A DNA stretch of 64,000 nt, from positions 1-64,000 of IMG/VR virus record IMGVR_UViG_3300042869_000676; one strand, written 5' to 3'. Positions 11,473-34,790 of this stretch are shown in pieces. The notes under the pieces were generated by a model, which made no database searches, was not told the origin of the DNA, and saw only the letters and a list, made by a program, of their open reading frames with translations. The stretch is from a virus. A program made the translations under genes and the position numbers. Position 1 is the stretch's first letter, and each line of letters opens with the position of its first letter.

Positions 11473-12015
11473 ATGAACCAAAAAAGTGTAAATATAGTGT
11501 TATTATCTTTATTGTTAAGTGGTTGCAGTTCTTTTATGAAGATGCCAGATGGTACTGTATCTAATAAAAATGCGCCGATATTCGTTAAGCCAAACACGAA
11601 CAGCCCGGCCGTAAATAAGCAGGAGGTTGAAGCGGCACCTTCTGTCCGGCGCCCGGCAGTGGTGAGCTTCAATGCCGAAAAGTACATTATGGTAAAGGAA
11701 AGTGATTTGAATAAGCTAGTAGAAGAGAAGACTAAAGAAGCTATTTTAAATTCATATAAAATAAAGCCAAACACGAATACTATTTCTGTTAATAATGAGA
11801 ACACGAATGGTAATGTTGTAAATAATGAGCCTACTGATATTGTTCCAGTTGGGAAAGTGCCAACCGTTGAGACCTTGGTGGTTAAACCACAGGAAACTTC
11901 GTCTATTGGCAGGTACTTGGCGACGGTAGTGGTGGTGCTAGGGTTCATCTTAGGAGTGGGCTGGCTGTTCTGGAAGAACAAACTCGCCGCAGCTAAAGAA
12001 AAGAAAACCGAGTAA
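11473..12015 (+). CDS. lipoprotein with C-terminal TM helix (unimolecular spanin-like)
   Basis: Lipobox LLLSGC, C-terminal hydrophobic helix plus basic tail, late motif upstream. Confidence 0.55.
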   Translation: MNQKSVNIVLLSLLLSGCSSFMKMPDGTVSNKNAPIFVKPNTNSPAVNKQEVEAAPSVRRPAVVSFNAEKYIMVKESDLNKLVEEKTKEAILNSYKIKPNTNTISVNNENTNGNVVNNEPTDIVPVGKVPTVETLVVKPQETSSIGRYLATVVVVLGFILGVGWLFWKNKLAAAKEKKTE

Positions 12016-12017
12016 AG

Positions 12018-12064
12018 TGGCGCATTCTTAGGGTTGTGGCGCATTGTTTCGGTTATGGCGCATT
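12018..12064 (+). repeat. TGGCGCATT x3 at 19-bp spacing
   Basis: Copies start at 12018, 12037, 12056. Confidence 0.85.
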
Positions 12065-12068
12065 TTTC

Positions 12069-12127
12069 GTGGAACATCTTTGCGTTGTGGAACATTTTTG
12101 TGGAACATCTTTAGCTTCGTGGAACAT
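12069..12127 (+). repeat. GTGGAACAT x4 (parS half-site quartet 1)
   Basis: Copies at 12069, 12087, 12100, 12119. Confidence 0.9.
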
Positions 12128-12159
12128 TTGATTTTTTAATCTTTTTTTAAGAAAAGGTA

Positions 12160-12196: not shown

Positions 12197-12424
12197 ATGA
12201 ATGAAACACCAATTAAAAAAGGCAGAGGTCGCCCCGCTGGTGGCACCTCTTTTGTAAACGTGTCTATCGCTGACTTGAAACGGTTCGGAGAAATTCCTGT
12301 TCCTGTTTCTCGCGTGTGGCTTGAAAAAATGGGCTTGACGGTCGCAACAATCTCACCCATTGTTAGCGAAGTTAAACAAGAAATTGCTCCCGCTATTGAA
12401 TTCAAATTGACCCAACTAAACTAA
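12197..12424 (+). CDS. small AT-hook DNA-binding protein
   Basis: KKGRGRPAG motif. Confidence 0.6.
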   Translation: MNETPIKKGRGRPAGGTSFVNVSIADLKRFGEIPVPVSRVWLEKMGLTVATISPIVSEVKQEIAPAIEFKLTQLN

Positions 12425-13362
12425 TGAAAGCTCGTTTCTCCAACCTAATCGGCCAAACTGATGTCAAGAAGAAGTTCGATTTCTATCTCGACTCTCAGAA
12501 TCAATCACAACGTTTTCCTTTTGTTTTGCTCACGGGCGCAAAGGGAATGGGCAAGACCGAGTTCGCCAAAGAAGCGGCTCGATCTATCGTTGGGAAAAGT
12601 GGCGAAGCTCGCCCATTTCTTGAGATCAACTGCGGCACAATCAAAAACGCGCAAATGTTCTTTGAGCAAGTGTTCGCACCTGTGATTCAAAACAATGAAG
12701 TTACTGTTCTGCTGGATGAGTGTCATGCTCTGCCCAAAGACTTAATGACTGTGCTTCTCTCTGCTTTTAACACTGAGAAAACTGAGCGCAAACAAATCTC
12801 TTGGAAGGACGGACTCTACGAGTTCAATTTCAAGATGCAGAGTTTCATGTTGGCAACGACTGAACAAGATCGTTTGTTTGGCCCATTGAAAGATCGTTTG
12901 CTGTCGATTGATTTTCAAGCCTACTCTGTGGCGGAAACTGCTGAGATTATCAAACGCGCATTCCCTGACATTAGTTTTGAAGGTGATGTGCTTAGTCTCG
13001 TTGCCAAAACTGTTCGTGGAAATGCTCGCTCTGCTATCCAACGCGCAAAACAGATTGAGATGTATTGCCAGACGAAACACAAGAAAACGTTTGACGTTGC
13101 TGACTGGACTTCACTCTGCGACAAGATCGGCATCAACTCATCTGGTCTTTCTAATTCTGAGATTCAAGTGTTGACAACTCTTAAACAGCGCGGCGACTGC
13201 TCGCTTTCAATGTTGAGCGCAGTCACAGGTATGTCTCGCTCTGCGCTTCAACGCGACGTGGAAATCTTCCTCTTGCAGCGCGGTTACATGAAGATCGAAG
13301 GTTCCAGAAAGATTACCGCAGAAGGTGTCAAGGCTTTGTCTGCTATCGAGGAGAAAAAATAA
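12424..13362 (+). CDS. ruvB: RuvB-like Holliday junction branch-migration ATPase
   Basis: FSNLIGQ, Walker A GAKGMGKT, Walker B LLDECH, PLKDRL, RGNAR, C-terminal VEIFLLQRGY...SRKITAEG winged helix. Confidence 0.8.
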   Translation: MKARFSNLIGQTDVKKKFDFYLDSQNQSQRFPFVLLTGAKGMGKTEFAKEAARSIVGKSGEARPFLEINCGTIKNAQMFFEQVFAPVIQNNEVTVLLDECHALPKDLMTVLLSAFNTEKTERKQISWKDGLYEFNFKMQSFMLATTEQDRLFGPLKDRLLSIDFQAYSVAETAEIIKRAFPDISFEGDVLSLVAKTVRGNARSAIQRAKQIEMYCQTKHKKTFDVADWTSLCDKIGINSSGLSNSEIQVLTTLKQRGDCSLSMLSAVTGMSRSALQRDVEIFLLQRGYMKIEGSRKITAEGVKALSAIEEKK

Positions 13363-14694: not shown

Positions 14695-14701
14695 TAGTTT
14701 A

Positions 14702-14776
14702 GTCCTTATCGTATAACGGATAATACAAGGCTCTTCTAAAGCCTCAATGAAAGTTCGATTCTTTCTGGGGACACCA
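14702..14776 (+). tRNA. tRNA-Arg(UCU)
   Basis: GTCCTTA/TGGGGAC acceptor, anticodon loop CTTCTAA, GTTCGATT, encoded CCA. Confidence 0.9.
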
Positions 14777-14778
14777 TC

Positions 14779-14851
14779 GGGCAGATAGCTTAGTGGTTAA
14801 AGCAAAGAACTCATAATTCTGTGATCGGGGGTTCAAGTCCCTCTCTGCCCA
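14779..14851 (+). tRNA. tRNA with CAU anticodon (Ile2 or elongator Met)
   Basis: GGGCAGA/TCTGCCC acceptor, loop CTCATAA, GGTTCAAGTCC; CCA not encoded. Confidence 0.9.
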
Positions 14852-14865
14852 TTTCTTTAGAGACA

Positions 14866-14985
14866 AAAGGTGAACCACTTATCTCTTAATACTAAAAGAC
14901 GAAAGCTGAACTAGATAATACTTAATAACGAAAGGTGAACTACTTAATACGTAATAACGAAAGGTGAATGCGTTAATAAGTAATA
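14866..14985 (+). repeat. 29-bp tandem repeat ACGAAAGSTGAA-N5-TAATAMNTAATA (3 copies plus one degenerate)
   Basis: Units at 14899, 14928, 14957; AAAGGTGAA also at 14866. Confidence 0.85.
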
Positions 14986-14994
14986 ATAAAAACA

Positions 14995-15093
14995 GGGGTA
15001 GGTAGGGGTAGGTAGGGGTAGGTAGGGGTAGGTAGGGGTAGGTAGGGGTAGGTAGGGGTAGGTAGGGGTAGGTAGGGGTAGGTAGGGGTAGGT
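14995..15093 (+). repeat. (GGGGTAGGTA) x ~10 tandem array
   Basis: Direct reading. Confidence 0.95.
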
Positions 15094-15129
15094 GAATTGA
15101 GATTGGTTCTCAGTCTCAACGGTGGAGCA

Positions 15130-15159
15130 GAAAAAACCCGCCCTTTTCGGGGCGGGTCG
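15130..15159 (-). terminator. intrinsic terminator (identical to 19124-19153)
   Basis: ACCCGCCC-TTTTCG-GGGCGGGT hairpin with A6 on + strand. Confidence 0.85.
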
Positions 15160-15177
15160 CTTTGGCGATCTCTGCGA

Positions 15178-15975
15178 TTAGTTAGCGCCGATCTCGGCAG
15201 GCAAAACAACGTTGATTCCTGCGAATGGGTCGAGGACGCTGTGAAGGATCGAGGACCGAATCGGGAGAGCGTTCAAATTCCCCTTGTAGATTTCGGTGAA
15301 GGCATTGTGAAGGCTCCAGAGGTTGCGCGGTGCAAACTCTTCGTGCAAGGGCTTGTCCCACTGGTCGAGCACATCGGCGATCATATTTTTGCCGATTGCG
15401 CCAGACCGATAAGAGCGCAAGATGAGGTTTCCAGCGGTCTCGTCGTCGAGATTCGTGTTCGTGTATTTTTTGACGCGGGTCTCGTGGTTCGTCCACATCT
15501 CGCCAAGCTTACCAAGCGCTTCGCCCATTTTCTTGGGTAGGTCGAGCATGATGTTGGTGGTGTGGCGGCGACCGATCACAATTTCGTTGTGGAAAACAAG
15601 ATTGTCGCAGACGAAAGGTGCGTTGCCAGCGCAAATGCCAGCGCGAAAATCTTTGCAGTGCGAGTTACGCAAGCCGACAACGGTGCCAGAGGTAGCGCCG
15701 TCTTTTTTCATGTCGATCTGAAACAAGCCAAAGTAATTTTGACCATATTTTGCAAGGGTGTGGTGTTCTTTGATTACGCTCAGGCCTTTTTCTGCGAGCT
15801 GGTCGCGGAAAATTTCGACCATGCGATTGTGGCTCACTGGCACGAAGCTGCGGGTAGTTTCGGGCAAGGGGACGTTGCCGATATCGGCAAATTCTACGGC
15901 GACGTTTCTGCCTCCTGCAACGTGCAGGTTCAACTCGCGCTTCTGATTAACTTGGGGGACATTTACAGTTTCCAT
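15178..15975 (-). CDS. DUF932-like protein
   Basis: PVSHN, GLRNSH, FVCDNLVF, RRHT, NLWSLHNAFTE motifs. Confidence 0.75.
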   Translation of the reverse strand: METVNVPQVNQKRELNLHVAGGRNVAVEFADIGNVPLPETTRSFVPVSHNRMVEIFRDQLAEKGLSVIKEHHTLAKYGQNYFGLFQIDMKKDGATSGTVVGLRNSHCKDFRAGICAGNAPFVCDNLVFHNEIVIGRRHTTNIMLDLPKKMGEALGKLGEMWTNHETRVKKYTNTNLDDETAGNLILRSYRSGAIGKNMIADVLDQWDKPLHEEFAPRNLWSLHNAFTEIYKGNLNALPIRSSILHSVLDPFAGINVVLPAEIGAN

Positions 15976-16211
15976 TTTTTTGTGTGTTTTATTGGTTGCG
16001 ACTAGGTGATCTAGTCGATGAGGAAAAACTGAAGTATCTGTTTAGACCGTGCAAGCCTTTTTGACGAATTAGTTGAAAAGAATCTTTGGGTATTTTTGCG
16101 GAAGGTGTTGACAAGTGCTTTGATTTTTTGTTGGGAAAATTGCGCGGCGCGCTTATATCAGAAAATGGCGCAAAGTCAACCCGGTATTTTTCTTTTTAGA
16201 AATTATTTATT

Positions 16212-16240
16212 TTGACAACGGTGTTTTATTCTGGTAAAAT
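16212..16240 (+). promoter_or_regulatory. near-consensus sigma70 promoter with no downstream ORF
   Basis: TTGACA-17-TAAAAT with TG extension and AT-rich UP element. Confidence 0.75.
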
Positions 16241-16246
16241 AAAACA

Positions 16247-16297
16247 GGGGTAGGAAAATTTTGATTAGGGGTAGGTAGGGGTAGGGGTAGGAAAATT
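16247..16297 (+). repeat. short GGGGTA/GGAAAATTT array
   Basis: Four GGGGTA units with AAAATTT linkers. Confidence 0.9.
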
Positions 16298-16313
16298 TGT
16301 TCCACGTGGAACA
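16298..16313. promoter_or_regulatory. parS: parS-type centromere site
   Basis: Perfect palindrome TGTTCCACGTGGAACA (extends to 20 bp, 16296-16315), a well-known chromosomal parS variant. Confidence 0.75.
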
Positions 16314-16339
16314 AAAAAAGCGAGGCAGTTACGCCTCGC
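16313..16339 (-). terminator. intrinsic terminator
   Basis: GCGAGGC-6-GCCTCGC with A7 on + strand. Confidence 0.75.
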
Positions 16340-16368
16340 AAATTTTGGATGAATTATTTATTTAAAGA

Positions 16369-16560
16369 TTAACTTTTTTGAATTGGAATGAATAGTTTAG
16401 TTACTCGTTGATTTCTAGGGTGGTTCATATAATTTAAAGATATAGAATGTCCTTTGATTTTATCAATCTTCGCCTCCATACGAGTAAGGAGCCTTCGATC
16501 TTTTTCGTTTTGAGCGATCATGCAGATGCTCATTGTATCTTCTTTAACGGATGTTTTCAT
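16369..16560 (-). CDS. hypothetical protein
   Basis: Last gene of - strand mini-operon. Confidence 0.6.
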   Translation of the reverse strand: MKTSVKEDTMSICMIAQNEKDRRLLTRMEAKIDKIKGHSISLNYMNHPRNQRVTKLFIPIQKS

Positions 16561-16567
16561 GTTTCGT

Positions 16568-16846
16568 TTAGTTTTTTTGTTTTATGTATTTCTCCATCTC
16601 GTCCCGAATTTCGTCGGGCATGAAGCAAGAAAAGTATTTTTCAGAACTAGATCCTTTCCAGTCCCAGATTGAGCAGTCGTGGTTTTGACCATCTAATTCC
16701 GCTGTGAAATACCAGACGGCGCAACATTTTCCATCTATGCTCGCAGTAGGTTGAAAGCCGAGAGCATTTGAAATTTCGTCGATGGTGAAGCCAAAGATAG
16801 TTCCGGTTTTGTAATTGTTTCCGATTTCTGCGGGTGTGATTCTCAT
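16568..16846 (-). CDS. hypothetical protein
   Basis: DGKC...W...CSIWDWK motif; coupled to hydrolase gene. Confidence 0.65.
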   Translation of the reverse strand: MRITPAEIGNNYKTGTIFGFTIDEISNALGFQPTASIDGKCCAVWYFTAELDGQNHDCSIWDWKGSSSEKYFSCFMPDEIRDEMEKYIKQKN

Positions 16847-17280
16847 TTGTAAAAAATATGATTTTCGATTGTAACTGTTGCAAGCATTTTTTTATTCCAA
16901 GATGGATTTATTTTTGTCGTGTGATAAAACTGTGCGTTTTTCGTGTAATTAGTGGAGCCAAGATTTTGAGCAATTTTGAGAGCGTTTGACCATTTCTTGT
17001 GTTTCTTTGCTTTGTTGATCTCAGCTTCAACATCTTTGCCGTTCCAACAAGAGAACTGTTTGCGCTGCAAACAAACTTGCATTGGCGAAAGTTTGCGCGA
17101 GATTGAACGGTTGTAAATCACTTCGGCAACAGCAGACATTGCGCGAAAATCGCGCTCGCCGCCAGCCTCGGCAATCAAAGTTGCGGCGACAATCTCAGTT
17201 GCGCTGACTGTTACAACCGATTTGCTGTGCAATGAGTTCAGCCCAGAAAAAAACGCGAGGAGAAGGCAAAGGGATTTCAT
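16843..17280 (-). CDS. cell wall hydrolase, SleB/Hydrolase_2 family
   Basis: Signal peptide, TLIAEAGGE, AVAEVIYNR, QFSCWN, FYH...PSW...IENHIFYK. Confidence 0.88.
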   Translation of the reverse strand: MKSLCLLLAFFSGLNSLHSKSVVTVSATEIVAATLIAEAGGERDFRAMSAVAEVIYNRSISRKLSPMQVCLQRKQFSCWNGKDVEAEINKAKKHKKWSNALKIAQNLGSTNYTKNAQFYHTTKINPSWNKKMLATVTIENHIFYK

Positions 17281-17368
17281 TTTTGTTGAGGTGTTGAATG
17301 GTTTGGTAACGGGAAAAGTTGTTTGCGATAAAGATTTCAGCGAGTTCGTATTCGTTCATTTTTTTTGA

Positions 17369-17389
17369 GGGGTAGGGGTAGGAAAATTT
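17369..17389 (+). repeat. GGGGTAGGGGTAGGAAAATTT mini-element
   Basis: Same unit as the 17790 array. Confidence 0.85.
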
Positions 17390-17621
17390 AACCAGACGAG
17401 TCAGCCCAGAAAGCTAATTTCTTAGATGGCGAAATGTAAAGGGATTCGTGCATAGAAAGCCGAATTTCTTTCAAGTCGGTTACGTCGGACAAAACGGCGG
17501 GGCGAGTTTTCCAGCCGTTTGCTGCGCCAAGATTAGTATAGCCAAGTACGTCGTTGAAAAAATTAACTTCAATTTTTTCGCCGTTTAACAAGAGGGTTTT
17601 TTTTCCGTGAATGTTGGTCAT
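17388..17621 (-). CDS. hypothetical protein, leaderless
   Basis: TTGCAA-17-TAGTTT (17656-17628), 6 nt before ATG. Confidence 0.65.
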   Translation of the reverse strand: MTNIHGKKTLLLNGEKIEVNFFNDVLGYTNLGAANGWKTRPAVLSDVTDLKEIRLSMHESLYISPSKKLAFWADSSG

Positions 17622-17789
17622 GGCTAAAAACTATTTTTTTTTCGTGGTGGTTGCAAGTTTTTTTTTAGATTTATTTTTTATTTTTTGAGAAAAAAGCTTG
17701 ACAAGAGTTTCGGCAAATAGTAAAGGTGAATGAGTTCTGTTCTAATAACAAACATGAAAGGTGAACGTGTTAATACCTAATAACAAATC

Positions 17790-17954
17790 TAGGGGTAGGA
17801 AAATTTTTAGGGGTAGGGGTAGGAAAATTTTTAGGGGTAGGGGTAGGGGTAGGAAAATTTTTAGGGGTAGGGGTAGGAAAATTTTTAGGGGTAGGGGTAG
17901 GAAAATTTTTAGGGGTAGGGGTAGGGGTAGGAAATTTTTAGGGGTAGGGGTAGG
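17790..17954 (+). repeat. compound array [(GGGGTA)n GG AAAATTTTTA], n=1,2,3,2,2,3,2
   Basis: Direct reading, 15 GGGGTA units. Confidence 0.95.
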
Positions 17955-17988
17955 CGTTTTGAGATTAGGTCTCAACTTCAATAAACGG

Positions 17989-18050
17989 CGTGGAACATTT
18001 CGGCACCGTGGAACATTTTCGTGGAACATTTCGCGCAGCGTGGAACATTT
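17989..18050 (+). repeat. CGTGGAACATTT x4 (parS half-site quartet 2)
   Basis: Copies at 17989, 18007, 18020, 18039. Confidence 0.92.
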
Positions 18051-18135
18051 TGGCGTGCCAACCTCGTTTTTTTAGCAAAGATTTTTTTTTATTTTTTAGT
18101 CGTTTTTTTTCGTTGGGTGTGGTTTATTTCCTGCG

Positions 18136-18852
18136 ATGAAAAAAACACTTCCCTTGCTTGCTTTCGGCGCGGACGCGAAAACGTCAAAAGGCGCTTTGCT
18201 TAATTACTTGACGGGCATTTTATACTTGGCTCCGGCCAATGAAGGAGGATTTGGAAATCTTTGCGTGAATGCTTCGGCGGGTTGTCTCTTGTCCTGCCTT
18301 TTCACGGCGGGGCGGGGTCGGATGTCAAACGTTCGCCTCGGTCGAATTCGGAAGACACGTTTATTTTTTACGGATAAAAAAGCATTTTTTGAACAGTTAG
18401 AAAAGGACATCGCGCGCGGCATGAAACGGGCGGCGAAATTGGGGCTAGGGTATTGCGTGCGGCTGAACGGGACGAGCGACGTTCCCTGGGAACGTTTGGG
18501 GATTTTCGAAAAATTTCCGTCCGTGCAATTTTATGATTACACGAAAAGCGTTTCGCGTGCGCTCGCGCACGCTCGCGGGGAAATGCCGTCGAATTATTAT
18601 TTGACGTTTTCGCGCTCTGAATCAAACGAAACGGACGCGCTCGCAGTGTTGGCTGCGGGCGGCAACGTTGCGGCGGTGTTTTCCTCGCCGAATTACCCGC
18701 AAACGTGGAAAGGGTTTGAAGTGGTGGACGGTGACAAGTCGGATCTGCGTTTTTTAGACAAGCGGGGCGGCGCTGTGGTTGCGTTGTATGCGAAGGGAAA
18801 AGCGAAAAAGGACGCAAGCGGCTTCGTCATTCAAACGGGGGGCGGCGCGTGA
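18136..18852 (+). CDS. GP88-like protein (Cys motif, radical-SAM-like)
   Basis: ILYLAPA, LCVNASAGCLLSCLFTAGRG, VRLNGTSD, QFYDYTK, NYYLTFS.SE, DGDKSDLRFLD, KGKAKKD. Confidence 0.7.
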   Translation: MKKTLPLLAFGADAKTSKGALLNYLTGILYLAPANEGGFGNLCVNASAGCLLSCLFTAGRGRMSNVRLGRIRKTRLFFTDKKAFFEQLEKDIARGMKRAAKLGLGYCVRLNGTSDVPWERLGIFEKFPSVQFYDYTKSVSRALAHARGEMPSNYYLTFSRSESNETDALAVLAAGGNVAAVFSSPNYPQTWKGFEVVDGDKSDLRFLDKRGGAVVALYAKGKAKKDASGFVIQTGGGA

Positions 18853-18920
18853 TTTCTTTTATCGTCTTTTTGGTGGTGCTCTGGTTTATGCTATCAAAGC
18901 AAAGGGCCAAGCGATAAAAC

Positions 18921-18952
18921 GGGGCGGGCCTAGCGGCTCGCCTCTTTTTTTT
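18921..18952 (+). terminator. intrinsic terminator
   Basis: GGGGCGGGCC-TAGC-GGCTCGCCTC then T8. Confidence 0.8.
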
Positions 18953-19001
18953 GTGCGCGTGTGCGCGTGTGCGCGTGTGCGCGTGTGCGCGTGTGCGCGT
19001 G
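18952..19001. repeat. (TGTGCGCG) x6 alternating purine-pyrimidine tract
   Basis: Direct reading. Confidence 0.95.
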
Positions 19002-19006
19002 ATGCG

Positions 19007-19120
19007 TAGGGGTAGGGGTAGGGGTAGGGGTAGGGGTAGGGGTAGGGGTAGGGGTAGGGGTAGGGGTAGGGGTAGGGGTAGGGGTAGGGGTAGGGGTAGG
19101 GGTAGGGGTAGGGGTAGGGG
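19007..19120 (+). repeat. (TAGGGG) x19 perfect array
   Basis: Direct reading. Confidence 0.95.
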
Positions 19121-19123
19121 CAC

Positions 19124-19153
19124 GAAAAAACCCGCCCTTTTCGGGGCGGGTCG
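19124..19153 (-). terminator. intrinsic terminator (identical to 15130-15159)
   Basis: GAAAAAACCCGCCCTTTTCGGGGCGGGTCG. Confidence 0.85.
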
Positions 19154-19177
19154 TTGGTTGCGTTGCGTTGCTTTGCG

Positions 19178-19708
19178 TTAGCTTACGCGGCGCACGCTCC
19201 GCACCGCAATCAAATTTTTTTCCCCTAGCGTATAACAAGCAAATTCCTTTTTCTCGGCAAATTCAGACGCGAGGCAAAGGGACTCGATCACGGCACGGGA
19301 GACGCTTTTCCCGTTGAGACGGAAAACGGTTTTGCAAGCGCGGGGCGTGCCGTCGCTGTTGTTCACGGGGTAAAGGCGGAGATAGAAAGCTCCCTTGTGC
19401 TCTATCAAACGATTCTCCATGCCGTCAACCCATTTGCCCCACGGTAAACCCTGATTCTCTGCGGGCGCGTCGCCATTGGCGCGGGCCTCGATGACCGATT
19501 GGCGGTTGTCGTGCTTTGCGCCGACTTGAACCGTTGAGCGGACTGATTTTGTGATGATGTCGGAAACTCCTTTGCGGGTTTTCATCGGGCGGCTCCATGA
19601 GACGCCAACAAATTGACCGGCGGGCACGCTCAAAAGTGCGGCGGCGATTGGTGACAAGGTGGCGGTTGCGGTTGCGGTTGCGGTGGCGGTGGCGGTGGCT
19701 GTTTTCAT
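19178..19708 (-). CDS. conserved phage hypothetical protein with N-terminal Thr-Ala repeat
   Basis: LPWGKWV...LIEHKGAFYLRLYP motif; own promoter region and terminator. Confidence 0.7.
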   Translation of the reverse strand: MKTATATATATATATATLSPIAAALLSVPAGQFVGVSWSRPMKTRKGVSDIITKSVRSTVQVGAKHDNRQSVIEARANGDAPAENQGLPWGKWVDGMENRLIEHKGAFYLRLYPVNNSDGTPRACKTVFRLNGKSVSRAVIESLCLASEFAEKKEFACYTLGEKNLIAVRSVRRVS

Positions 19709-19846: not shown

Positions 19847-19854
19847 GCGAAAAA

Positions 19855-20005
19855 CACTATAGCGAATTCTATAGTGGCGCGAGGAAATGATATAGCGTTG
19901 TATCAAAAATGATATAGCACTATATCAAAAAGTATATAGCGCTATATACACCCCCCGCCCTTATATAAAAAAGTATATAGCGAATTGTATAGGGCGCGGG
20001 GGGGG
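19855..20005. repeat. array of five TATAGC-core palindromes plus C/G-rich inverted repeat
   Basis: 19855-19876, 19888-19905, 19910-19927, 19932-19949, 19973-19991; CCCCCCGCCC at 19951 vs GGGCGCGGGGGGGG at 19992. Confidence 0.88.
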
Positions 20006-20241
20006 ATGGTAATTCCTCACTCTACCATCAATTTAAACCATCTTAATTTAATTACCCCCAAGGCTATCTTTACTTATCTCACTTACATTTACTTGCTTTA
20101 CTTACCCTTGATTAGCTTATATATCTTACCTGTATATAAACATACCTAAAAGAAACACTATCCCCCCACCCTTTTCTGAGAAAATGAGAAAATATCTAAA
20201 AGAATAGGAACAAAAACTCACTTTCCGGGCGGGGGAGAATT

Positions 20242-20838
20242 TTACCTAGCCTTTGGCTTAATTCCTTCTTCTTCTAGCTGTTTATCATAGGCTAAAGAAA
20301 CGAGCATAGCTTCTTCATGTGTTTCAAAATAACCTAAATGTTTGCCGCATCTTTTAACACGGTATTTTTTAGATCCATCTTTAAACGTTAATATGAATAT
20401 TCCGTACTTATAATTTTTTAGTTTTTTATTGTTATTATTTTGCTTCATAGTAACTTCATATAAATTAGATATAGAGTTATTTAAGGGATTTTTATCTCTA
20501 TGATCTACAAGCATATTTATTTCAGGCCAACGCTTGTGATACATAGTATATAGCAAAGTATGAACATGGTGATTTTTTCTTTTAAACGAGGTCCTTTTGT
20601 ATCCGTTCCATATACTAGTAATCTCTTTGCCTGAATTTCTGTTAGTTAATGTGCCTTTTTCAAAATCAGCGATAAATGACTCCGACAAATCTTCTGGAGT
20701 TGGTCTATTTTTGTATTCAAAATAAAGCTTTACAAACTCGTCTATATCCATATGCTGGCTTCTTTTATAACGAAAAATCGCATCTTTTTCTTGAAAAGAC
20801 ATAGATAGCTCTTCTGGCTGTTGATTTTCTTGATTCAT
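20242..20838 (-). CDS. HNH homing endonuclease
   Basis: VDHRDKNPLNNSISNL and C-terminal HLGYFETHEEA (AP2-like). Confidence 0.85.
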   Translation of the reverse strand: MNQENQQPEELSMSFQEKDAIFRYKRSQHMDIDEFVKLYFEYKNRPTPEDLSESFIADFEKGTLTNRNSGKEITSIWNGYKRTSFKRKNHHVHTLLYTMYHKRWPEINMLVDHRDKNPLNNSISNLYEVTMKQNNNNKKLKNYKYGIFILTFKDGSKKYRVKRCGKHLGYFETHEEAMLVSLAYDKQLEEEGIKPKAR

Positions 20839-20841
20839 AAA

Positions 20842-21546
20842 TTAACCTTCGTTGAAAAATTCTCCGTGTAATTTTCGACCTATTTCATCTCGCCAAGCTT
20901 TAAGTATTTGAATTGTAGCTTCAACAAATTCTTTTTTAACAGTCATCGACTTGAAATATTTCTTCCCATTACAAGAAACACAAGCATCAACACGCACGCG
21001 ATCATCAGAAATAGAACGCACAAAAACACCTTTTACCCCTGATTTGTTACTTTCGTACAATGATTTGTTACTGGCGTTTTGAGAATTAGTACTTTCTCTT
21101 AGATTGCAAGGTCTATTATCTGTTTTATCTTCATTTATATGATCTACCTTATAGCCTTTTTTGGCCCAACGACCATTATGTAAACAAAAAATAATTTTAT
21201 TAAGAAAAACCGTAAAATAATAACCCTCAAATTTTATACTGGCTACTATATATCCCTGACGTTTTAAAAAGCCAACTTTATCACCAGCCTTTTTATTACC
21301 ACTGTTGTTTTTTAAAAACAAATTTCCATCTTCGTCATGATAATACATCTTAGCTAATTGTTCTGGAGAAATAACATCTTCAATCCTTTTTTTTGGCCCC
21401 TTATACTCCCAAACATCCATTGCATAGTTGAAGTTTTCTATTCCGCCGATTCTTTTTACTAAGAGTCTAATTTCAGCAAGCATTTCTGCCGTCACAATTA
21501 ACTCTTTTTTTTGATTTGTTTGTTTTGCTTTTTTAGTTAGCGCCAT
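20842..21546 (-). CDS. HNH homing endonuclease
   Basis: VDHINEDKTDNRPCNLRE...NKSGVKGV. Confidence 0.88.
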   Translation of the reverse strand: MALTKKAKQTNQKKELIVTAEMLAEIRLLVKRIGGIENFNYAMDVWEYKGPKKRIEDVISPEQLAKMYYHDEDGNLFLKNNSGNKKAGDKVGFLKRQGYIVASIKFEGYYFTVFLNKIIFCLHNGRWAKKGYKVDHINEDKTDNRPCNLRESTNSQNASNKSLYESNKSGVKGVFVRSISDDRVRVDACVSCNGKKYFKSMTVKKEFVEATIQILKAWRDEIGRKLHGEFFNEG

Positions 21547-21555
21547 ATAAATACT

Positions 21556-22077
21556 TTACTTAACCTTTTCCGCTAAAAGCGCCAACAACTCATTAGAGAT
21601 ATCTTCTTTATCTACCGTATAATCAGGAAGAGTAGTAGAAGAGCCTGAATAATGGTCAAATTCGGAAACTTGAACGTAATTCAACGGCCCCAAATGCGCC
21701 AAATAGCGACATTTTTCTTCGTTATAGTCTTCTGGAAGGTTATCGAACAACCAAACAGCGCCCGGTTCAATTTGAGGAATTTTGCCAGTGCGCCCGCGAA
21801 TATCCTCACGAGAGTATATATCTTCGGCCTCAAATCCAAAGGAAAAGGCTTTGTTCATGGCAAGAGCATAGTCTCTTGTAGCTACTGTGAGCATAAAAAC
21901 CTTAGCCTTCTTACGAGCTTGCTCAAGAAACGCGACAGAACATTCTCTAACCTTCGTATTATAATGCTCTTTTGAGCTTAAAGTTATCTTTTGATAACCG
22001 GGCATAACTGATTTGGAGAATAATCCATAAGTATGGATTAATGTTTCATCTAAGTCAACGAATATGTATTTGTTCAT
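21556..22077 (-). CDS. HAD-superfamily (NIF/FCP1-like) phosphatase
   Basis: FVDLDETLIHT, LT.A..DYA, LFDN. Confidence 0.8.
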   Translation of the reverse strand: MNKYIFVDLDETLIHTYGLFSKSVMPGYQKITLSSKEHYNTKVRECSVAFLEQARKKAKVFMLTVATRDYALAMNKAFSFGFEAEDIYSREDIRGRTGKIPQIEPGAVWLFDNLPEDYNEEKCRYLAHLGPLNYVQVSEFDHYSGSSTTLPDYTVDKEDISNELLALLAEKVK

Positions 22078-22109
22078 GTTATGCCTTAATTAAAAATATT
22101 AAAAATAGC

Positions 22110-22646
22110 TCAATCAAAGTTGCTAATTTGAATCCCAAGTACAAGGTCATCCCCAGTACTATCCTGTTTTTCAGTGTTTTCATTAAATTTTGGTATTTTG
22201 TGTAGGTATGGTTCTAAATCAAATCTTCCAGCGTGAAATTCGGCGTGGCAGTTCTTGCATAATGGGGCGCATTTCTGTAGTTCTTTTATAAGTTCTTCAT
22301 CATCTAATTTTCTTCTACACTCTCCTATCTCAAACTTTTTCTCTGACGGGACAATGTGATGAAAGTCTATTGCTTCCGGAACAGAATGTCCGCATCTGAT
22401 ACATGCGCCGCCTAAATGGTTAATATAACTAATTTTTAAACATCTTGCTACATCTCTCCTCGTTTTTAAATTTCTATGTGGAGTTTTATCATGGCATTCT
22501 TTACAACTTCCCCTAAGACCAAATCGACCTGCCTTATTCACATAGAAATCAGAGAAAAGCTTAAGCAATTTACAAGCACGACAAGTTTTATGTGTTACAG
22601 TTTGATGCGTCACTAAAGTATCAACTATTGTATCAGTTTGCGTCAT
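22110..22646 (-). CDS. HNH endonuclease with Zn fingers
   Basis: CRAC...CKEC, GGACIRCG...IDFHH...LCKNCHAEFH. Confidence 0.85.
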   Translation of the reverse strand: MTQTDTIVDTLVTHQTVTHKTCRACKLLKLFSDFYVNKAGRFGLRGSCKECHDKTPHRNLKTRRDVARCLKISYINHLGGACIRCGHSVPEAIDFHHIVPSEKKFEIGECRRKLDDEELIKELQKCAPLCKNCHAEFHAGRFDLEPYLHKIPKFNENTEKQDSTGDDLVLGIQISNFD

Positions 22647-22839
22647 TCAAATCCTCTTCATAAGGTGGCTGAGAACCATTTTTAATATAAAAAAACAATT
22701 CTTTTAAGCCTTTAACAAAGTCACGCCCGGCTTCTTTAGAGTTAAAGGTCATTTGAATCAAGAATGTTAAGCCTCCCAGCACAATAAAGGCTGGGATAGC
22801 TAATAGCGCCCAAATTAATCTAAAAACTAAGCTTTTCAT
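22633..22839 (-). CDS. small membrane protein
   Basis: MKSLVFRLIWALL... hydrophobic; likely start downstream of the ORF-track start. Confidence 0.5.
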   Translation of the reverse strand: MKSLVFRLIWALLAIPAFIVLGGLTFLIQMTFNSKEAGRDFVKGLKELFFYIKNGSQPPYEEDLNDAN

Positions 22840-22840
22840 T

Positions 22841-23440
22841 TTAGGTCCAAAACTTTTCGCGGTTTTTAACCACAAAGTCGCACAAAACTGTGTCGCATTC
22901 GTTAAGGTGTTTGTCCATTTCAATGTAAGCTGTGAAATTATCATTCTCTAAACTCAAAGCGTGATTGTGAATATCGTCTAAAAGCTTTTGCCGTCCACCT
23001 TTAGCGTAATCGTAAGCTTCTTTAAGTTGTTTAACGAATTGAATTTCCTTTTCAGTCTCTGAACAAATATGTTCAAGATATTTTTCTCTTTCAACTAGCT
23101 CAACAACGCAAGCAAGATGAAACAAAACAATAATTTCGACCATATCCATTTCTCCGCTCTTATCAAACACAGCGTTACGAAACTCTTTGCGTGGATGACG
23201 CAAGAAATTCTTGATTTTGCGCTTAATAAATCGGTAATTGGAACCAACTGAATAATAGCAATCATCATAAGTTTCTCTTAGGAAACGCTGAACAGGATAC
23301 TGAACGGACAAGTAAGCGTAATACTTGTCCCACTCTCTAAAACCTAGAGCGTATGGCGCAACGTACCACCCAGTAGGCCAAAACCATACTTTCTTTTCTG
23401 TTTTTTCTTTACCTTGTGAAATGTATTCTTCTGCTGTCAT
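22841..23440 (-). CDS. hypothetical protein
   Basis: Operon packing. Confidence 0.7.
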   Translation of the reverse strand: MTAEEYISQGKEKTEKKVWFWPTGWYVAPYALGFREWDKYYAYLSVQYPVQRFLRETYDDCYYSVGSNYRFIKRKIKNFLRHPRKEFRNAVFDKSGEMDMVEIIVLFHLACVVELVEREKYLEHICSETEKEIQFVKQLKEAYDYAKGGRQKLLDDIHNHALSLENDNFTAYIEMDKHLNECDTVLCDFVVKNREKFWT

Positions 23441-23445
23441 ATTAT

Positions 23446-24081
23446 TTAGAGTTCGATTGTTCTAGCAGTGTTAATTGGTTTGTATTGTTCAGTGCAGATA
23501 GCTGCATTAACAAACATAGTGTTGTTTTTAACTTCAATGCCGTAGCCATTGTGGATATGGCCAAAAACATGAAGCTTAAGTTTAAGGTTTTCAGTGATTG
23601 TAGTGAATAAGTTGGCGCATCCAACGTGAACATTGCCCGGAGCTTTGTCAAGAATACTCATAGGTGGACCATGAGTAATCAAAACATCAGTATTTTTTGG
23701 AATCAAGTTCCAATGTTCTTGAATAGCCAATCCGCGTTTGCGATTAAACGCCCAATCAAAGAATTCTGGTTGAACTGGCGATCCCCAAAAGTTTAAACCT
23801 TCAATTGTGACGCCTTCATCTTGAAGATAGTGAATGCCCGGCGGTATGATCGCGTTGATTTCAGAACGGCTTGCTTTTTCCATCCATTTATCATGATTAC
23901 CAGCGATAACAAGCTTGTATTTGTGCGGCAAAGAGCCGAACCATGCGAAAAACTCGACGCAATCAAAGTAATCGCCGCCATTACAAAAGTCTCCAGAGTG
24001 GATAATCATATCTCCATCTGGAATCTTACCTTTTAAATGACCGTGAAGTCCATGAGTGTCTGAAATACAAATAATTTTCAT
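23446..24081 (-). CDS. metallophosphoesterase
   Basis: CISDTHG, HSGDF, IAGNHD, LITHGPP, HVFGHIH. Confidence 0.9.
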   Translation of the reverse strand: MKIICISDTHGLHGHLKGKIPDGDMIIHSGDFCNGGDYFDCVEFFAWFGSLPHKYKLVIAGNHDKWMEKASRSEINAIIPPGIHYLQDEGVTIEGLNFWGSPVQPEFFDWAFNRKRGLAIQEHWNLIPKNTDVLITHGPPMSILDKAPGNVHVGCANLFTTITENLKLKLHVFGHIHNGYGIEVKNNTMFVNAAICTEQYKPINTARTIEL

Positions 24082-24314
24082 ACGAATTCAACCATTTCTT
24101 TGTCGCCATCTACGATATACTTTAAAAATGTTTTATATTCTTCGCTAACGGTAGATTCAATACCGATTACATAAGCAGTCATTAAAATATCGGACAAGAG
24201 CTTCTCTTGCGTTTCCGTAGAGTAAGCTTTTAGCGCGTTAATGTGGCCTTCAAACTTTTTTGGAAGCTTTAACTTTGCTGGTTTTTTGTTTTTTAGATTT
24301 TTCTTTGGTTTCAT
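24078..24314 (-). CDS. hypothetical protein
   Basis: ATGA coupling. Confidence 0.6.
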   Translation of the reverse strand: MKPKKNLKNKKPAKLKLPKKFEGHINALKAYSTETQEKLLSDILMTAYVIGIESTVSEEYKTFLKYIVDGDKEMVEFV

Positions 24315-24537
24315 TAGTTTCTACTCCATAATAATCACAAACTATGCGAAGAGCACCCGCGAGAGTGAGGTTGTATTCCAAATCCTCTGTTTCCCAACTT
24401 TCTAATTTCTTTTTAGACTGCAAAATTTTAACATTTTGCATTGTATTCTCATAATGCCATTTGAGGCTAGTTGATGTGAGACTATCGGCCAAATCTGCGC
24501 TAAAGAGAGGAATCTCTGAGAGAGTTTTTGAGTTCAT
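24250..24537 (-). CDS. hypothetical protein
   Basis: Likely start MNSKTLSE. Confidence 0.5.
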   Translation of the reverse strand: MNSKTLSEIPLFSADLADSLTSTSLKWHYENTMQNVKILQSKKKLESWETEDLEYNLTLAGALRIVCDYYGVETNETKEKSKKQKTSKVKASKKV

Positions 24538-24718
24538 AATTTTTAGAGTGGTCGGTTTTAAACCAAATGTCAAGACTTTGTGATAAGAAATCGTAAAATT
24601 CATCATCTTCTCGCACAGAATTAAAACGAATGTCTCGATTTGCGAGTTCTTGATACACCGCAGCAGTCATTGCAACGATGTCTCCTTTGTAGATTTCTTT
24701 GTTAGTTGTTAAGGTCAT
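24500..24718 (-). CDS. hypothetical protein
   Basis: ATGA coupling. Confidence 0.55.
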   Translation of the reverse strand: MTLTTNKEIYKGDIVAMTAAVYQELANRDIRFNSVREDDEFYDFLSQSLDIWFKTDHSKNYELKNSLRDSSL

Positions 24719-25275
24719 GCGATTTTGTGAAAAAAGTTAGCGATTGCTGTAAAAAACTTATATTTGTAGCGAGAGAAATTGCGGTAAGTGAGAGTATAAA
24801 AAATATACTTATTGTACCAAAGATTATGGTTTTTAGCGATCTGCTCTTTCCATCTCTTCTCATTTTCTAGTCTCTCTTTGTTTGATTCTTTAGTGAATTT
24901 CGCCAAAACAATGCTATCGCAAACGCCGTGAGTGAAAGTAGCTTCGTAATCTACGGAGCAGTCCCAAAGATCAAGAACGTCTCGGTAATAAGTGTAGAAA
25001 ACGATCTTGCCGTGATGGTTAACTTGTTCAAGATACTCTCCGCTTCTTTCCATATGGCCGAAATCCCAAGGGCCAGATGGCTTTTCTGGCTCGACAAATT
25101 TATTCACTTCGTATTTTCGTACAAAGAGTTTTTTGCCTTGGATAATATAAGTTTCTAAGCAATTGATCAAATCTTTAGTTTGAAAATCGCCGTTATTAGA
25201 GTTTAGGCCAAGGCAAATCATTTCCTCTGAGTAAGGAAGAGTGTCGCTAACGATAATTGTGTCGAACATTCCCAT
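24715..25275 (-). CDS. conserved phage hypothetical protein
   Basis: MGMFDTI...FQTKDL...Y.ATF..G motif. Confidence 0.7.
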   Translation of the reverse strand: MGMFDTIIVSDTLPYSEEMICLGLNSNNGDFQTKDLINCLETYIIQGKKLFVRKYEVNKFVEPEKPSGPWDFGHMERSGEYLEQVNHHGKIVFYTYYRDVLDLWDCSVDYEATFTHGVCDSIVLAKFTKESNKERLENEKRWKEQIAKNHNLWYNKYIFYTLTYRNFSRYKYKFFTAIANFFHKIA

Positions 25276-25279
25276 AAAA

Positions 25280-25528
25280 TTATTTATTTGGTTTTAAAGT
25301 TTTGGAAACGAGGTATCCGTCTCCTGATGGAGTGAAATCAACACTATCTCCTTCATTAAGTCCAGCCTTTTTGAGCATTTTTTTTGGAATTACAATGAAG
25401 TAGCCGTCTTTGTCTTGAAGAACAGGCACTTGCACCTTATTTTTCTTTTTAAAAATATCATCAATTCTGTTTGCGAATTCGTCAGAAGAGATAGAAGATG
25501 GGCGACGTTTTGATCCTTTTCCGTTCAT
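25280..25528 (-). CDS. small protein with AbrB/SpoVT-like C-terminal domain
   Basis: IVIPKKMLKKAGLNEGDSVDF. Confidence 0.6.
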   Translation of the reverse strand: MNGKGSKRRPSSISSDEFANRIDDIFKKKNKVQVPVLQDKDGYFIVIPKKMLKKAGLNEGDSVDFTPSGDGYLVSKTLKPNK

Positions 25529-25580
25529 AAGTTATAGTAGTTCAAGAGGTGGTTTTTCCAGTTAAAGTGTAAAAAATAGC

Positions 25581-25946
25581 ATGGAAGATCAGATGAATTC
25601 TTTTATTTCTCAAAATTCGGTACTTTTGGTAGCGGGCGTTGCTTCGTTGCTGTTTAAAGAATTTATCATCAACATTGTCAAGAGCATTATCTTTAAAATG
25701 ACATCTGGATTAAAAGAAGATGACGTTTTAATGTTTTGGGACGGCACAAAAAGCCCAGCGAGAATTGTGAGAATCGGCTTAATGTCAACAACTTTGTTTA
25801 TCTACGACGTAAACGAAGAAGGAATCATTACTGGCGGCAGTCGTCTTGTTATGCAGAACGTGAAACTGGAAAATGTCAAGTTCTTGAAACGGCTAGCAAT
25901 GATTGACGACGCTGATCTTAAACAGTTCAAAAAAAGTGTAAAATAA
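25581..25946 (+). CDS. membrane protein (MscS beta-domain-like)
   Basis: TM then FKEFIINIV...ARIVRIGLMSTTL; late motif upstream. Confidence 0.45.
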   Translation: MEDQMNSFISQNSVLLVAGVASLLFKEFIINIVKSIIFKMTSGLKEDDVLMFWDGTKSPARIVRIGLMSTTLFIYDVNEEGIITGGSRLVMQNVKLENVKFLKRLAMIDDADLKQFKKSVK

Positions 25947-25950
25947 TCAG

Positions 25951-26739
25951 ATGCCTTACGTTACTTACGATAAAATCAGGGCGTATTTTACGAACGCTGA
26001 TAGCGCTACCGACAACATCTTGTACGCAACTAGTTTAAGCGCATCAAACACAACTAGTTTAAAAAGAGTTAGAAGAATTGGTCAGGAGATGGATTACTAC
26101 ATTCAAACTGGCCCAAAAAGTTCAAGTATTTCCGCAAATGTTCTTTTAGTTTCTGGAGAAATCAACAAAATCATCAATTTAACTGGAGATTCTGTTGGCG
26201 GATCAGCAATCAAAGTTCCAGATTACCAATTTAGTAAATGTTATTTAAAAAGTTTTTCCGCATCGTTTGAACCTTGGAAAGTTGCGTCTGCCGCTTTACA
26301 ATTCGACTCTTACGGATTAGCTAATGGCACAGGAGTTTACGCTTATACTGAACAGCAAGCTTCTTCTGAGGTTTTGCTCTCGCCTTTAAGAGCAACAACA
26401 ATTCAATTCTCTGCTCCAAGCTTTTCCACTACTCCAATCTCACAGTACGAGAATATTTCTTTCGATATTCAAGTTGATAGAGTTCCAAATTTTGTTATTG
26501 GCTCGGAATATCCCGAAAAAGTTAGCGTTTCTAAAGTTACAAAATCTTTGCAAGTAAACGGACTGTCCAATGCAGATTGGCTATCTGATTATCAACCAAA
26601 CACAACAGTAACCTGCACAATTACAATGTCGGACGCTACTGTTTTTTCGGTAGCTGGCGTTTTATCTAATCAAAGTCTCTCTGTTGATTCCAACGGAGTA
26701 GCTAAAGGAGGATTGCAGATTATTGAAGAGATGGTTTAA
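25951..26739 (+). CDS. virion structural protein (tail tube-like fold possible)
   Basis: Ser/Thr-rich beta protein, late motif upstream. Confidence 0.5.
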   Translation: MPYVTYDKIRAYFTNADSATDNILYATSLSASNTTSLKRVRRIGQEMDYYIQTGPKSSSISANVLLVSGEINKIINLTGDSVGGSAIKVPDYQFSKCYLKSFSASFEPWKVASAALQFDSYGLANGTGVYAYTEQQASSEVLLSPLRATTIQFSAPSFSTTPISQYENISFDIQVDRVPNFVIGSEYPEKVSVSKVTKSLQVNGLSNADWLSDYQPNTTVTCTITMSDATVFSVAGVLSNQSLSVDSNGVAKGGLQIIEEMV

Positions 26740-26745
26740 CACTTT

Positions 26746-27525
26746 ATGGCAAAAAAAGCCCCTAAGAACAAGAAAACTAAACCTGCGGGAATCACAATTC
26801 CGCAACTAAAACAAGAAATCAAATTTAAAGAAAGAAAATTTAAGTTTTCAGATAAGCAACAAGACTTATTAAAAATACTTTTAAACGAGCAGACCAAAAT
26901 CTCTTTCATCGCTGGACCAGCGGGAACATCAAAGACATTTATGGCTGTTTACGCAGCGTTAAACCTCATTAGCAACAATGACAAAGAAATCATTTACATT
27001 AGAACAATCGCAGAGAGCGGAGAGAAATCTCTAGGAGCACTGCCCGGAACAGTTGGCGACAAATTTGCGCCTTACTTGATTCCTCTTGAGGATAAAGTTC
27101 ACGAAATGATCGAAGCTACTGATGCTTACCGTCTTAAAGACGATGGTAGGCTTACCGCAATACCAGTTAACTTCCTAAGAGGCAGCACATTCACTGATAA
27201 AATCATTATTGCTGATGAAGTGCAAAACTTTACAGCTAAAGAGATTACAACTCTCTTAACTAGAATCGGAGAAGGTACAAAAATCTTTTTATGCGGAGAT
27301 TTTATGCAGTCCGACATTAAAGTTAAGAATGGTTTCCTTGATTTCTTTGAACTTTTCACTGGAGAAGACTGCATGGAAAAAGGAATCTATACTTTTGAGT
27401 TCTCTGAAGAAGATATTAAAAGAAGCGAAATCTTAAAATTTGTTGTAAAGAAGATTAACAATATTAATCTCCGTTATAGAATAAAAGATGAGCAGCGCAA
27501 CGTCAAAAACGTCTCAGTTGAATAG
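26746..27525 (+). CDS. phoH: PhoH-family ATPase
   Basis: GPAGTSKT, LGALPG, FLRGSTF, ADEVQN, LLTRIG, CGDFMQSD. Confidence 0.92.
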   Translation: MAKKAPKNKKTKPAGITIPQLKQEIKFKERKFKFSDKQQDLLKILLNEQTKISFIAGPAGTSKTFMAVYAALNLISNNDKEIIYIRTIAESGEKSLGALPGTVGDKFAPYLIPLEDKVHEMIEATDAYRLKDDGRLTAIPVNFLRGSTFTDKIIIADEVQNFTAKEITTLLTRIGEGTKIFLCGDFMQSDIKVKNGFLDFFELFTGEDCMEKGIYTFEFSEEDIKRSEILKFVVKKINNINLRYRIKDEQRNVKNVSVE

Positions 27526-27829
27526 TTGGGCAAATATTATTAAGGTATTTGGCGGAATTTTGATCGCCTGTACGTTGTACTACCTAAATACAACGTATGT
27601 AAAGAAGGATGATTTTAATCCTGTTGCTTTAGAGATGAAAGTTCAGGCAGAGCAAATGTCTTACGTTAATACAGAGGTAAAAAATATTTCTCGACGCCTT
27701 TCAAAGATAGTAGATGACGAAGGAAAGCCAGTTAATACAGACAAAATGGTTGAAATACAGAAAGATATTACTAAGATATTAGTAAAGCTGGAAAACCTTA
27801 ACGATAAGGTTGACCGCATATCTAAATAA
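27488..27829 (+). CDS. single-TM coiled-coil protein (holin/chaperone-like)
   Basis: N-terminal TM, C-terminal coiled coil. Confidence 0.45.
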   Translation: MSSATSKTSQLNSWANIIKVFGGILIACTLYYLNTTYVKKDDFNPVALEMKVQAEQMSYVNTEVKNISRRLSKIVDDEGKPVNTDKMVEIQKDITKILVKLENLNDKVDRISK

Positions 27830-27833
27830 TAAT

Positions 27834-28211
27834 ATGGCTATCACTTTCTGTTCATCGTGCGGCGCAAAACATGAGTATGTTGGATTTGCGCCAAACTTTT
27901 GCTCAAAATGCGGTTCTTCTTTTGGCTCGAAAGCTGTTCAACAGTCAACGGCAAAAGTTCAGCAGAAACCAACTGCTATTCGCAGTTCACAAGTAGAAGA
28001 CGATGACGAAGATTCTTCCGATATTGAGGAGCTTCCACACATAGAGTCGTTAGACGTTGAAATCGCAATGGAAGGAGGCTTTAAAGCCTTCAGCCTTGAA
28101 GATCTACAACGGAATCCCATGCAAGCGCAAGCTAAGAAATTCAAAGCAAAGCGCTCTGATGGTATTGATGGCCTATCTCCCGAAAAATATGGAAGCTCAA
28201 AAGCTCGGTAA
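27834..28211 (+). CDS. zinc-ribbon protein
   Basis: FCSSCG...NFCSKCG. Confidence 0.65.
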   Translation: MAITFCSSCGAKHEYVGFAPNFCSKCGSSFGSKAVQQSTAKVQQKPTAIRSSQVEDDDEDSSDIEELPHIESLDVEIAMEGGFKAFSLEDLQRNPMQAQAKKFKAKRSDGIDGLSPEKYGSSKAR

Positions 28212-34787: not shown

Positions 34788-34790
34788 TTC

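Follow-up and report, generated by a model that had tools for sequence, protein, structure and literature searches.

Clade-specific G-rich repeats in intergenic DNA have been known for decades in bacteria such as Xanthomonas and Nostoc, and the short tandemly repeated repetitive (STRR) sequences of cyanobacteria are comparable intergenic heptamer arrays. The units of Xanthomonas (GGGAATC) and Nostoc (GGGGA(C/T)T) make up quadruplex-forming intergenic simple sequence repeats (SSRs), whose G arm stands after stop codons on the coding strand and before start codons on the non-coding strand; even close relatives differ widely in the length of these repeats, for which no function has yet been established (Rehm et al., 2015, PMC4692102). 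Heptamer arrays of TAACTGA are found before starts in Beggiatoaceae, Cyanobacteria and Bacteroidetes (MacGregor, 2015, PMC4679880), and herpesviruses carry arrays of TTAGGG, the telomere repeat of their hosts (Puig Lombardi et al., 2019, PMC6572409). Here we analyze five arrays built on the hexamer GGGGTA, which lie within positions 14994-19120 of the window, which covers 64 kb from the start of a 75.6-kb IMG/VR virus record (IMGVR_UViG_3300042869_000676; CheckV: linear class, ~52% complete).

These arrays are closest to the SSRs of Rehm et al. (2015), with which they share G-rich tandem units of 6-7 nt, present in 2-26 copies in non-coding DNA. The same placement rule holds for GGGGTA in metagenome-assembled genomes (MAGs) of the Opitutales, and one of the phage arrays (array 3) fits it. 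They differ in having the hexamer GGGGTA, in being carried by a phage and in being confined to 4 kb on one strand; they also lack a pairing arm and greatly exceed the usual host copies in length, and three of the five fall below four adjacent G runs. The TAACTGA arrays have a different unit, which is not prone to form G-quadruplexes (G4), and phages are not mentioned in the part of that paper on which we draw (MacGregor, 2015, PMC4679880). The likeness to the herpesvirus arrays is that a virus carries a tandem G-rich word that would be the signature repeat of its host; there the hosts are eukaryotic and the host structure is a demonstrated one, the telomere, whereas here the host is a candidate and the function of the host elements is not known. 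The explanation that we favour, and hold to be probable if not strongly so, is that the phage arrays are G-rich SSRs of a host type that slippage and local duplication recently expanded in dispensable spacers, and that they have at most local effects on transcription or translation.

Five GGGGTA arrays in intergenic spacers

Direct reading, Tandem Repeats Finder and a motif scan agree on the five arrays, every one of which is G-rich on the + strand, as a preliminary description made from the letters alone had claimed. Array 1 (14994-15093) consists of ten 100% identical units of (AGGGGTAGGT). In array 2 (16247-16297), two of the four GGGGTA units end in GGAAAATTT, and array 3 (17369-17389) is (GGGGTA)2 followed by GGAAAATTT, with 2.5 units at 17369-17382. 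Array 4 (17790-17954) has 15 GGGGTA units in groups of 1-3, separated by A4T5 linkers (GGAAAATTTTTA) with a period of 24/30, and array 5 (19006-19120) is the plain hexamer repeated 19.2 times, again with 100% identical units. The copy numbers of the perfect arrays, 100-114 bp in length, are those of the assembled contig. Three different higher-order units are thereby built on one GGGGTA core. The window contains 56 copies of the hexamer, a number that none of 100 shuffles reaches (they give 9.5 +/- 3.1). Of the 56 copies, 49 fall in 14995-19116 (4.1 kb), on the + strand without exception. Outside this stretch the rest of the 75.6-kb record has no further arrays and not a single copy of the 14-mer GGGGTAGGGGTAGG. 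The chance that five arrays share one orientation, taken alone, is 1/16.

By the canonical G4 rule (four runs of three or more G with loops of up to 7 nt), only array 1, with 6-nt loops, and array 5, with 2-nt loops, are predicted to form quadruplexes. Arrays 2-4 have at most three adjacent four-G runs and stay below the rule, so the G4 potential that the preliminary description saw in the four-G runs is real for the two perfect arrays and, by this rule, does not extend to the other three.

All five arrays are intergenic and lie between open reading frames (ORFs) that have family matches or orthologues in related phages. Array 1 is in the convergent spacer between a tRNA-Met gene (+) and a DUF932 gene (-), array 2 in a tandem -/- spacer ahead of the DUF932 gene, and array 3 fills the 28-nt spacer between two - strand ORFs, one of which starts with the ATG at 17359. 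Array 4 occupies the divergent spacer between a - strand operon (start 17621) and a GP88-family gene (+, start 18136), and array 5 a convergent one, lying between the GP88 unit (+) and the terminator that serves the - strand gene at 19178-19708. Arrays 1, 4 and 5, in these convergent or divergent spacers, are 90-180 nt from the ORFs. Reading the arrays as coding repeats was rejected: the ORFs that span them also cross terminators and conserved boxes and cannot exist in the relatives.

The relatives are five related contigs from IMG/VR (L037/L041, L038, L039, L040 and L042); among INPHARED phages no relative of the 8-kb region was found. Neighbouring proteins are 64-95% identical to those of the five contigs and synteny is largely kept. 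The identities to L037/L041 are 91% for a RuvB-like protein, 76% for a hydrolase, 79% for GP88, 65% for DUF932 and 64% for a 92-aa protein; further values are 90% for the RuvB-like protein of L038, 95% for the hydrolase of L039, 81% for L040 and 79% for L042. None of the five contigs has a GGGGTA array, and each contains 0-3 scattered hexamers. Their equivalent spacers are filled with AT-rich TATAG-type stretches and a CCGGGCC-C-GGCCCGG palindrome; in L037 and L038 an AT-rich TATAG stretch stands at the position of array 1, after the same 29-nt repeats. Among 2.9 million IMG/VR viral contigs the composite unit GGGGTAGGAAAATTT gave only single, chance-level matches. The absence of the arrays from the relatives suggests that they are a recent, private gain of this phage lineage. 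Import of the DUF932 or GP88 gene as a cassette together with the arrays was considered and rejected, as both are orthologous to L037 genes and have the same gene order there; in L039 the DUF932 gene is relocated.

Across IMG/VR, (GGGGTA)5 is not special among phages: it is found at 20 loci, which differ widely in GC content, and the reversed word at 15. Many public (GGGGTA)n arrays stand at the very ends of contigs (L010, L011, L014, L020-L022, L025, L027; G196:C22; G197:C120 and C141), which suggests that assemblies break there.

The GGGGTA word in freshwater Opitutales

A search of prokaryotes with one genome per species (185,579 species) gave 112 (GGGGTA)5 stretches, and among the 80 listed about 27 belong to Verrucomicrobiota, mostly to lake MAGs of Opitutales/Opitutae. 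In five Opitutales MAGs of ~2 Mb the 14-mer GGGGTAGGGGTAGG has 13-44 exact matches each, spread over many separate loci, against 0 for the reversed control. It is matched by 15 of the 61 genomes sampled from one freshwater Opitutales (Verrucomicrobiota) family, in ~11 of them at many loci, while of 61 genomes taken order-wide only three besides G001 match, with a single match each. Where actinobacterial or betaproteobacterial genomes carry the array, it is limited to 1-3 loci. A BLAST comparison of five array-bearing genomes with the first 20 kb of the window returned >40 array-like loci in each, and otherwise only tRNA similarity. GGGGTAGGGGTAGG is a dispersed intergenic word of a subclade of one freshwater Opitutales family, which is a new result; to our knowledge, the GGGGTA/GGGGCA/GGGGTT hexamer family has not been described for Verrucomicrobia. 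The preliminary description had argued from the three higher-order units for selection on the core. What stands of this argument is that the relevance of the core word goes beyond one slippage event, the same word being dispersed in the candidate host clade.

We read 13 host loci, picked by the search tool, of which 12 are intergenic and one lies in a coding Pro/Thr linker. In 12 of the 13 the sense strand carries a G arm after a stop or a C arm before a start. At the intergenic loci the G-rich arm begins within ~15 nt after the stop and the C-rich arm stands 0-100 nt before the start; divergent spacers have G then C, and in tandem spacers the two arms, one G and one C, might pair over a distance of ~50-130 nt. 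With 2-6 units, the host elements are short, and most of them form paired G/C dyads. Arms of GGGGTA, GGGGCA and GGGGTT bracket spacers in the Opitutales MAGs L133, L105, L160, L223-L231 and L240, and several genes downstream of such arms begin with signal-peptide-like sequences.

How far the phage conforms to this rule is only weakly testable from the positions of its arrays. Array 3 is the only one in the canonical host-type position, with a C arm 10 nt ahead of the ATG. In arrays 2 and 3 alike, it is the C-rich strand that reads in the sense direction towards the next start, which for array 2, the DUF932 start, is 272 nt away. The orientation of arrays 1, 4 and 5 is uninformative, because either orientation in a convergent or divergent spacer suits one neighbour. 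As for other features of SSRs of the Rehm type, a tandem G-rich unit of 6-9 nt in non-coding DNA is found in the phage arrays, and so is variation in presence or copy number between close relatives (absent from L037-L042). Genome-wide dispersal of the word is seen in the candidate host clade and not in the phage, where it takes up 4.1 of 75.6 kb.

The array-bearing Opitutales subclade is compatible with being the host of the phage, a link that is unproven and rests mainly on one shared word. Several other properties are likewise compatible with this clade as host, short of proof. The locus comes from lake water; the tRNAs of the window (Thr-UGU, Leu-UAA, Arg-UCU and Met; 3416-3490, 4583-4670 and 14702-14851) may be read in the same direction, since Thr-UGU, Leu-UAA and Arg-UCU serve A-ending codons, which would fit a low-GC phage in a high-GC host that serves those codons poorly. 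The argument relies on the known role of phage tRNAs. Starts without Shine-Dalgarno sequences occur in both the phage and the candidate host. Finally, a perfect 16-bp palindrome, TGTTCCACGTGGAACA, abuts array 2 at 16298-16313. Five array-bearing Opitutales genomes carry the identical 16-mer as parS, with one or two copies each, and four of the five have two copies ~1.17 kb apart, like chromosomal parS sites. This parS variant is common among high-GC bacteria.

Origin and possible role of the arrays

In the explanation that we favour, the arrays would be G-rich, quadruplex-prone intergenic SSRs like those of Rehm et al. (2015), using the word of the probable Opitutales host subclade. They would have arisen recently in the non-coding spacers of an otherwise syntenic early-gene region, where replication slippage would have lengthened them and duplication or gene conversion would have copied them to nearby sites. 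Recent slippage together with local duplication or gene conversion would account for the perfect copies, the single orientation and the absence from close relatives, and the 100% identity within arrays 1 and 5 is as expected of recent expansions. The likeliest effect would be a local one, a punctuation of transcription or translation through G4, through unstructured C-rich leaders or through a host factor, and the arrays would not be a replicon-wide polarity signal.

Several results weigh against this explanation, some of them by way of the proposed host. The phage has 38-40% GC against ~65% for the Opitutales MAGs, and a phage-host gap of 25 points is unusual. In 137 genomes of the family, no CRISPR-like match to positions 20001-40000 of the window was found, the single DNA match being a look-alike of a terminator hairpin, and no relative of the terminase was found in them either. 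The word (TGTGCGCG), which abuts array 5, is absent from five candidate host genomes, and the decamer variant was not found in candidate host genomes. It had also been predicted that the CCGGGCC-C-GGCCCGG palindrome of the relatives would be a word of the same bacterial family, and this was rejected, with only 2 single matches in 61 genomes. The arrays themselves raise further difficulties: they are long and have no C arm on the + strand, in contrast to the short and mostly paired host elements, and only array 3 is within 50 nt of an ORF as the placement rule predicts. Five other phage records with (GGGGTA)5 were checked and had one cluster each. Five independent seeds of one word in 4 kb are hard to obtain by neutral slippage alone.

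Another hypothesis, possible but on balance rather unlikely, is that the phage mimics its host under selection. The host word would have been amplified into long unpaired arrays that titrate or recruit a host factor reading GGGGTA/CCCCTA (as DNA, G4 or RNA), that recombine with the dispersed arrays of the host (~50 copies), or both. By analogy, this might tentatively be seen as a bacterial counterpart of the telomere-repeat mimicry of herpesviruses. The word is common to a narrow host clade, the phage concentrates 49 units in 4 kb where a host genome of ~2 Mb has 13-44 exact 14-mer matches, and three different higher-order units share one core, all of which would suit mimicry. Arrays 2-4 fail the G4 rule, so that the word rather than the fold seems to matter, and a predicted + strand promoter would transcribe array 2. 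Co-evolution of G4 motifs between virus and host has been proposed for eukaryotic viruses (PMC6572409). Yet no factor that reads the word is known, and the arrays are absent from close relatives that presumably infect similar hosts. A recent neutral expansion fits the perfect arrays equally well, and the points raised above against the candidate host, which is unproven (no CRISPR-like match and no terminase relative in the 137 family genomes), count here too.

If the phage truly shares the private word of a host clade, such words would offer a cheap, sequence-only clue for pairing phages with uncultured lake Verrucomicrobia. Long, unpaired and recently gained arrays next to array-free sister phages would then also be a natural experiment, which could separate reading by a host factor from a by-product of host-specific replication slippage. 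Should mimicry be true, it would provide the first experimental handle on the role of clade-specific G-rich intergenic repeats.

A role of the arrays in replication or in protein binding is doubtful. They could form part of an origin, through unwinding or through R-loop/G4 priming beside iteron-like repeats, or be iterons, a centromere or pac sites for a phage protein. What speaks for this is a module that occurs twice, at arrays 1 and 4, in which ~29-nt repeats are followed by the G array and then by a small TTGAGA/TCTCAA hairpin. The repeats, of the form AAAGGTGAA...TTAATAC..TAATAAC, look like iterons; four copies of 29-36 nt (AAAGGTGAA...TAATAAC) stand on the + strand immediately ahead of array 1 (14865-14990) and two immediately ahead of array 4 (17721-17787, +). 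They lie 3' of tRNA genes and are kept across the relatives although the adjacent sequence is not (L037 12195-12343; L039 11592-11675; L042 13473-13572). The AT-rich TATAG stretch that replaces array 1 after these repeats in L037 and L038 points the same way, as does the 10-bp period of array 1, which is that of the DNA helix. However, a core origin or centromere should be conserved, and the arrays are absent in the five related contigs; moreover, the periods differ between arrays (6, 10 and 24/30). Iterons and centromeres of the parC or tubC type are recognised by helical phase, cognate genes and conservation, and here the 10-bp period is confined to array 1. A scan of ten neighbouring ORFs, in a neighbourhood search that was not exhaustive, gave no partition, initiator or other DNA-binding match except the RuvB-like AAA protein and an HNH endonuclease.

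The preliminary description had proposed that the arrays are directional loading sites for a DNA translocase of the FtsK type, comparable to the FtsK-orienting polar sequences (KOPS) of E. coli, and this we consider most improbable. Its count is exact: the consensus GGGNAGGG has 28 matches, all of them GGGTAGGG, all on the + strand and all inside arrays 2-5 (16279-19119), and array 1 has none. As in E. coli, then, an octamer that fits the consensus occurs on a single strand. KOPS, however, occur singly and dispersed over a whole replichore, and their strand changes at dif. In the phage the 8-mer is found only in four clusters of tandem hexamers, with zero matches elsewhere in the 64 kb, where shuffles expect 2.6, and it is missing from the relatives together with the arrays. 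The GGGTAGGG octamer is a by-product of tandem hexamers, and the outcome for the KOPS claim is mostly deflationary. The preliminary description had itself named an orientation that is not conserved in relatives as evidence against its proposal; no array exists in any of the five related contigs, and a conserved polar signal is refuted on those terms.

In the candidate host, a single spacer can contain the word in both orientations, which go with the direction of the genes and show no polarity common to a replichore. One observation on the other side comes from G081, a MAG with long contigs, in which the exact word is strand-biased per contig and the G-rich strand tracks the local GC skew. In the region of this genome that was read, 11 of 11 genes are on the strand opposite to the G-rich word, as the gene rule predicts. 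On its 905-kb contig C1 the exact-word loci are 4 + and 2 - to the left of the parS pair and 3 + to the right, with no strand switch, in what is one unclosed genome with an unmapped origin. Besides, a phage of lytic type has no known need for dimer resolution at dif.

An assembly artefact, in which low-complexity sequence was wrongly built into the contig, is very unlikely: assemblers do struggle with such arrays, as their frequent position at public contig ends shows, but the five arrays have different structures and unique flanks, and 24 lake-water metagenome runs, each from a different study, contain 88-99% of the 31-mers sampled from the locus (14700-19400), so it is not a one-off chimera.

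Neighbouring genes and flanking elements

The array stretch looks like an early-gene region. A RuvB-like AAA protein is encoded at 12424-13362 (+), followed by tRNA-Arg and tRNA-Met (14702-14851, +), the DUF932 protein (15178-15975, -), a small operon that includes a cell-wall hydrolase (16369-17621, -) and the GP88-family protein (18136-18852, +). There are further - strand genes, with the HNH endonuclease among them, and a rIIB-like gene and the large terminase are found elsewhere in the window. An Rfam search found only tRNAs. L039 has, at 11770-12110 (read on the - strand), an extra Cys-rich ORF that separates the tRNAs from the 29-nt repeats and is followed by an apparent duplicated tRNA 3' end. 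This arrangement suggests an insertion into a tRNA gene, which is present neither in the window nor in L037.

Beyond array 1, a GC hairpin with a T run at 15130-15159 (-) is the predicted terminator of the DUF932 gene, and a 100% identical hairpin, likewise a predicted terminator, is found at 19124-19153 (-), 4 nt beyond array 5. Two identical 30-nt terminator hairpins thus stand 4 kb apart, each beyond a perfect G array, and the relatives have different hairpins there. A predicted sigma-70-like promoter, TTGACA-17-TAAAAT (11/12, with TG; 16212-16240, +), ends 7 nt ahead of array 2. A transcript that starts from it would contain first the G-rich array 2, then the parS-like palindrome and a hairpin.

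A quartet of GTGGAACA boxes (17989-18050, +) separates array 4 from the GP88 gene, and a second quartet is found at 12068-12129. The quartets have a spacing of 18/13/19 and stand upstream of + strand genes; they are conserved and more numerous in the relatives (L037 12420-12485, 14110-14205 and 16020-16215; L039 7300-8080 and 9770-9840). There, two quartets often flank the CCGGGCC-C-GGCCCGG palindrome, which the window does not have. The boxes are probably operator sites of a phage regulator.

The array that abuts array 5 consists of 6.8 copies of (TGTGCGCG) at 18952-19006 (+). It holds GCGCGTG six times, a heptamer that we take to be the Chi site of Lactococcus. Farther on, at 19850-19992, there are three 22-nt repeats and hairpins on palindromes of the TATAGCGCTATA type, and similar CTATATAG words fill spacers of the relatives L037 and L039. 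A repeat of another kind is found at 42900-54200, where several large + strand ORFs, such as the one at 44894-50860 (1988 aa), contain very long collagen-like CAAGGN nonamer repeats.

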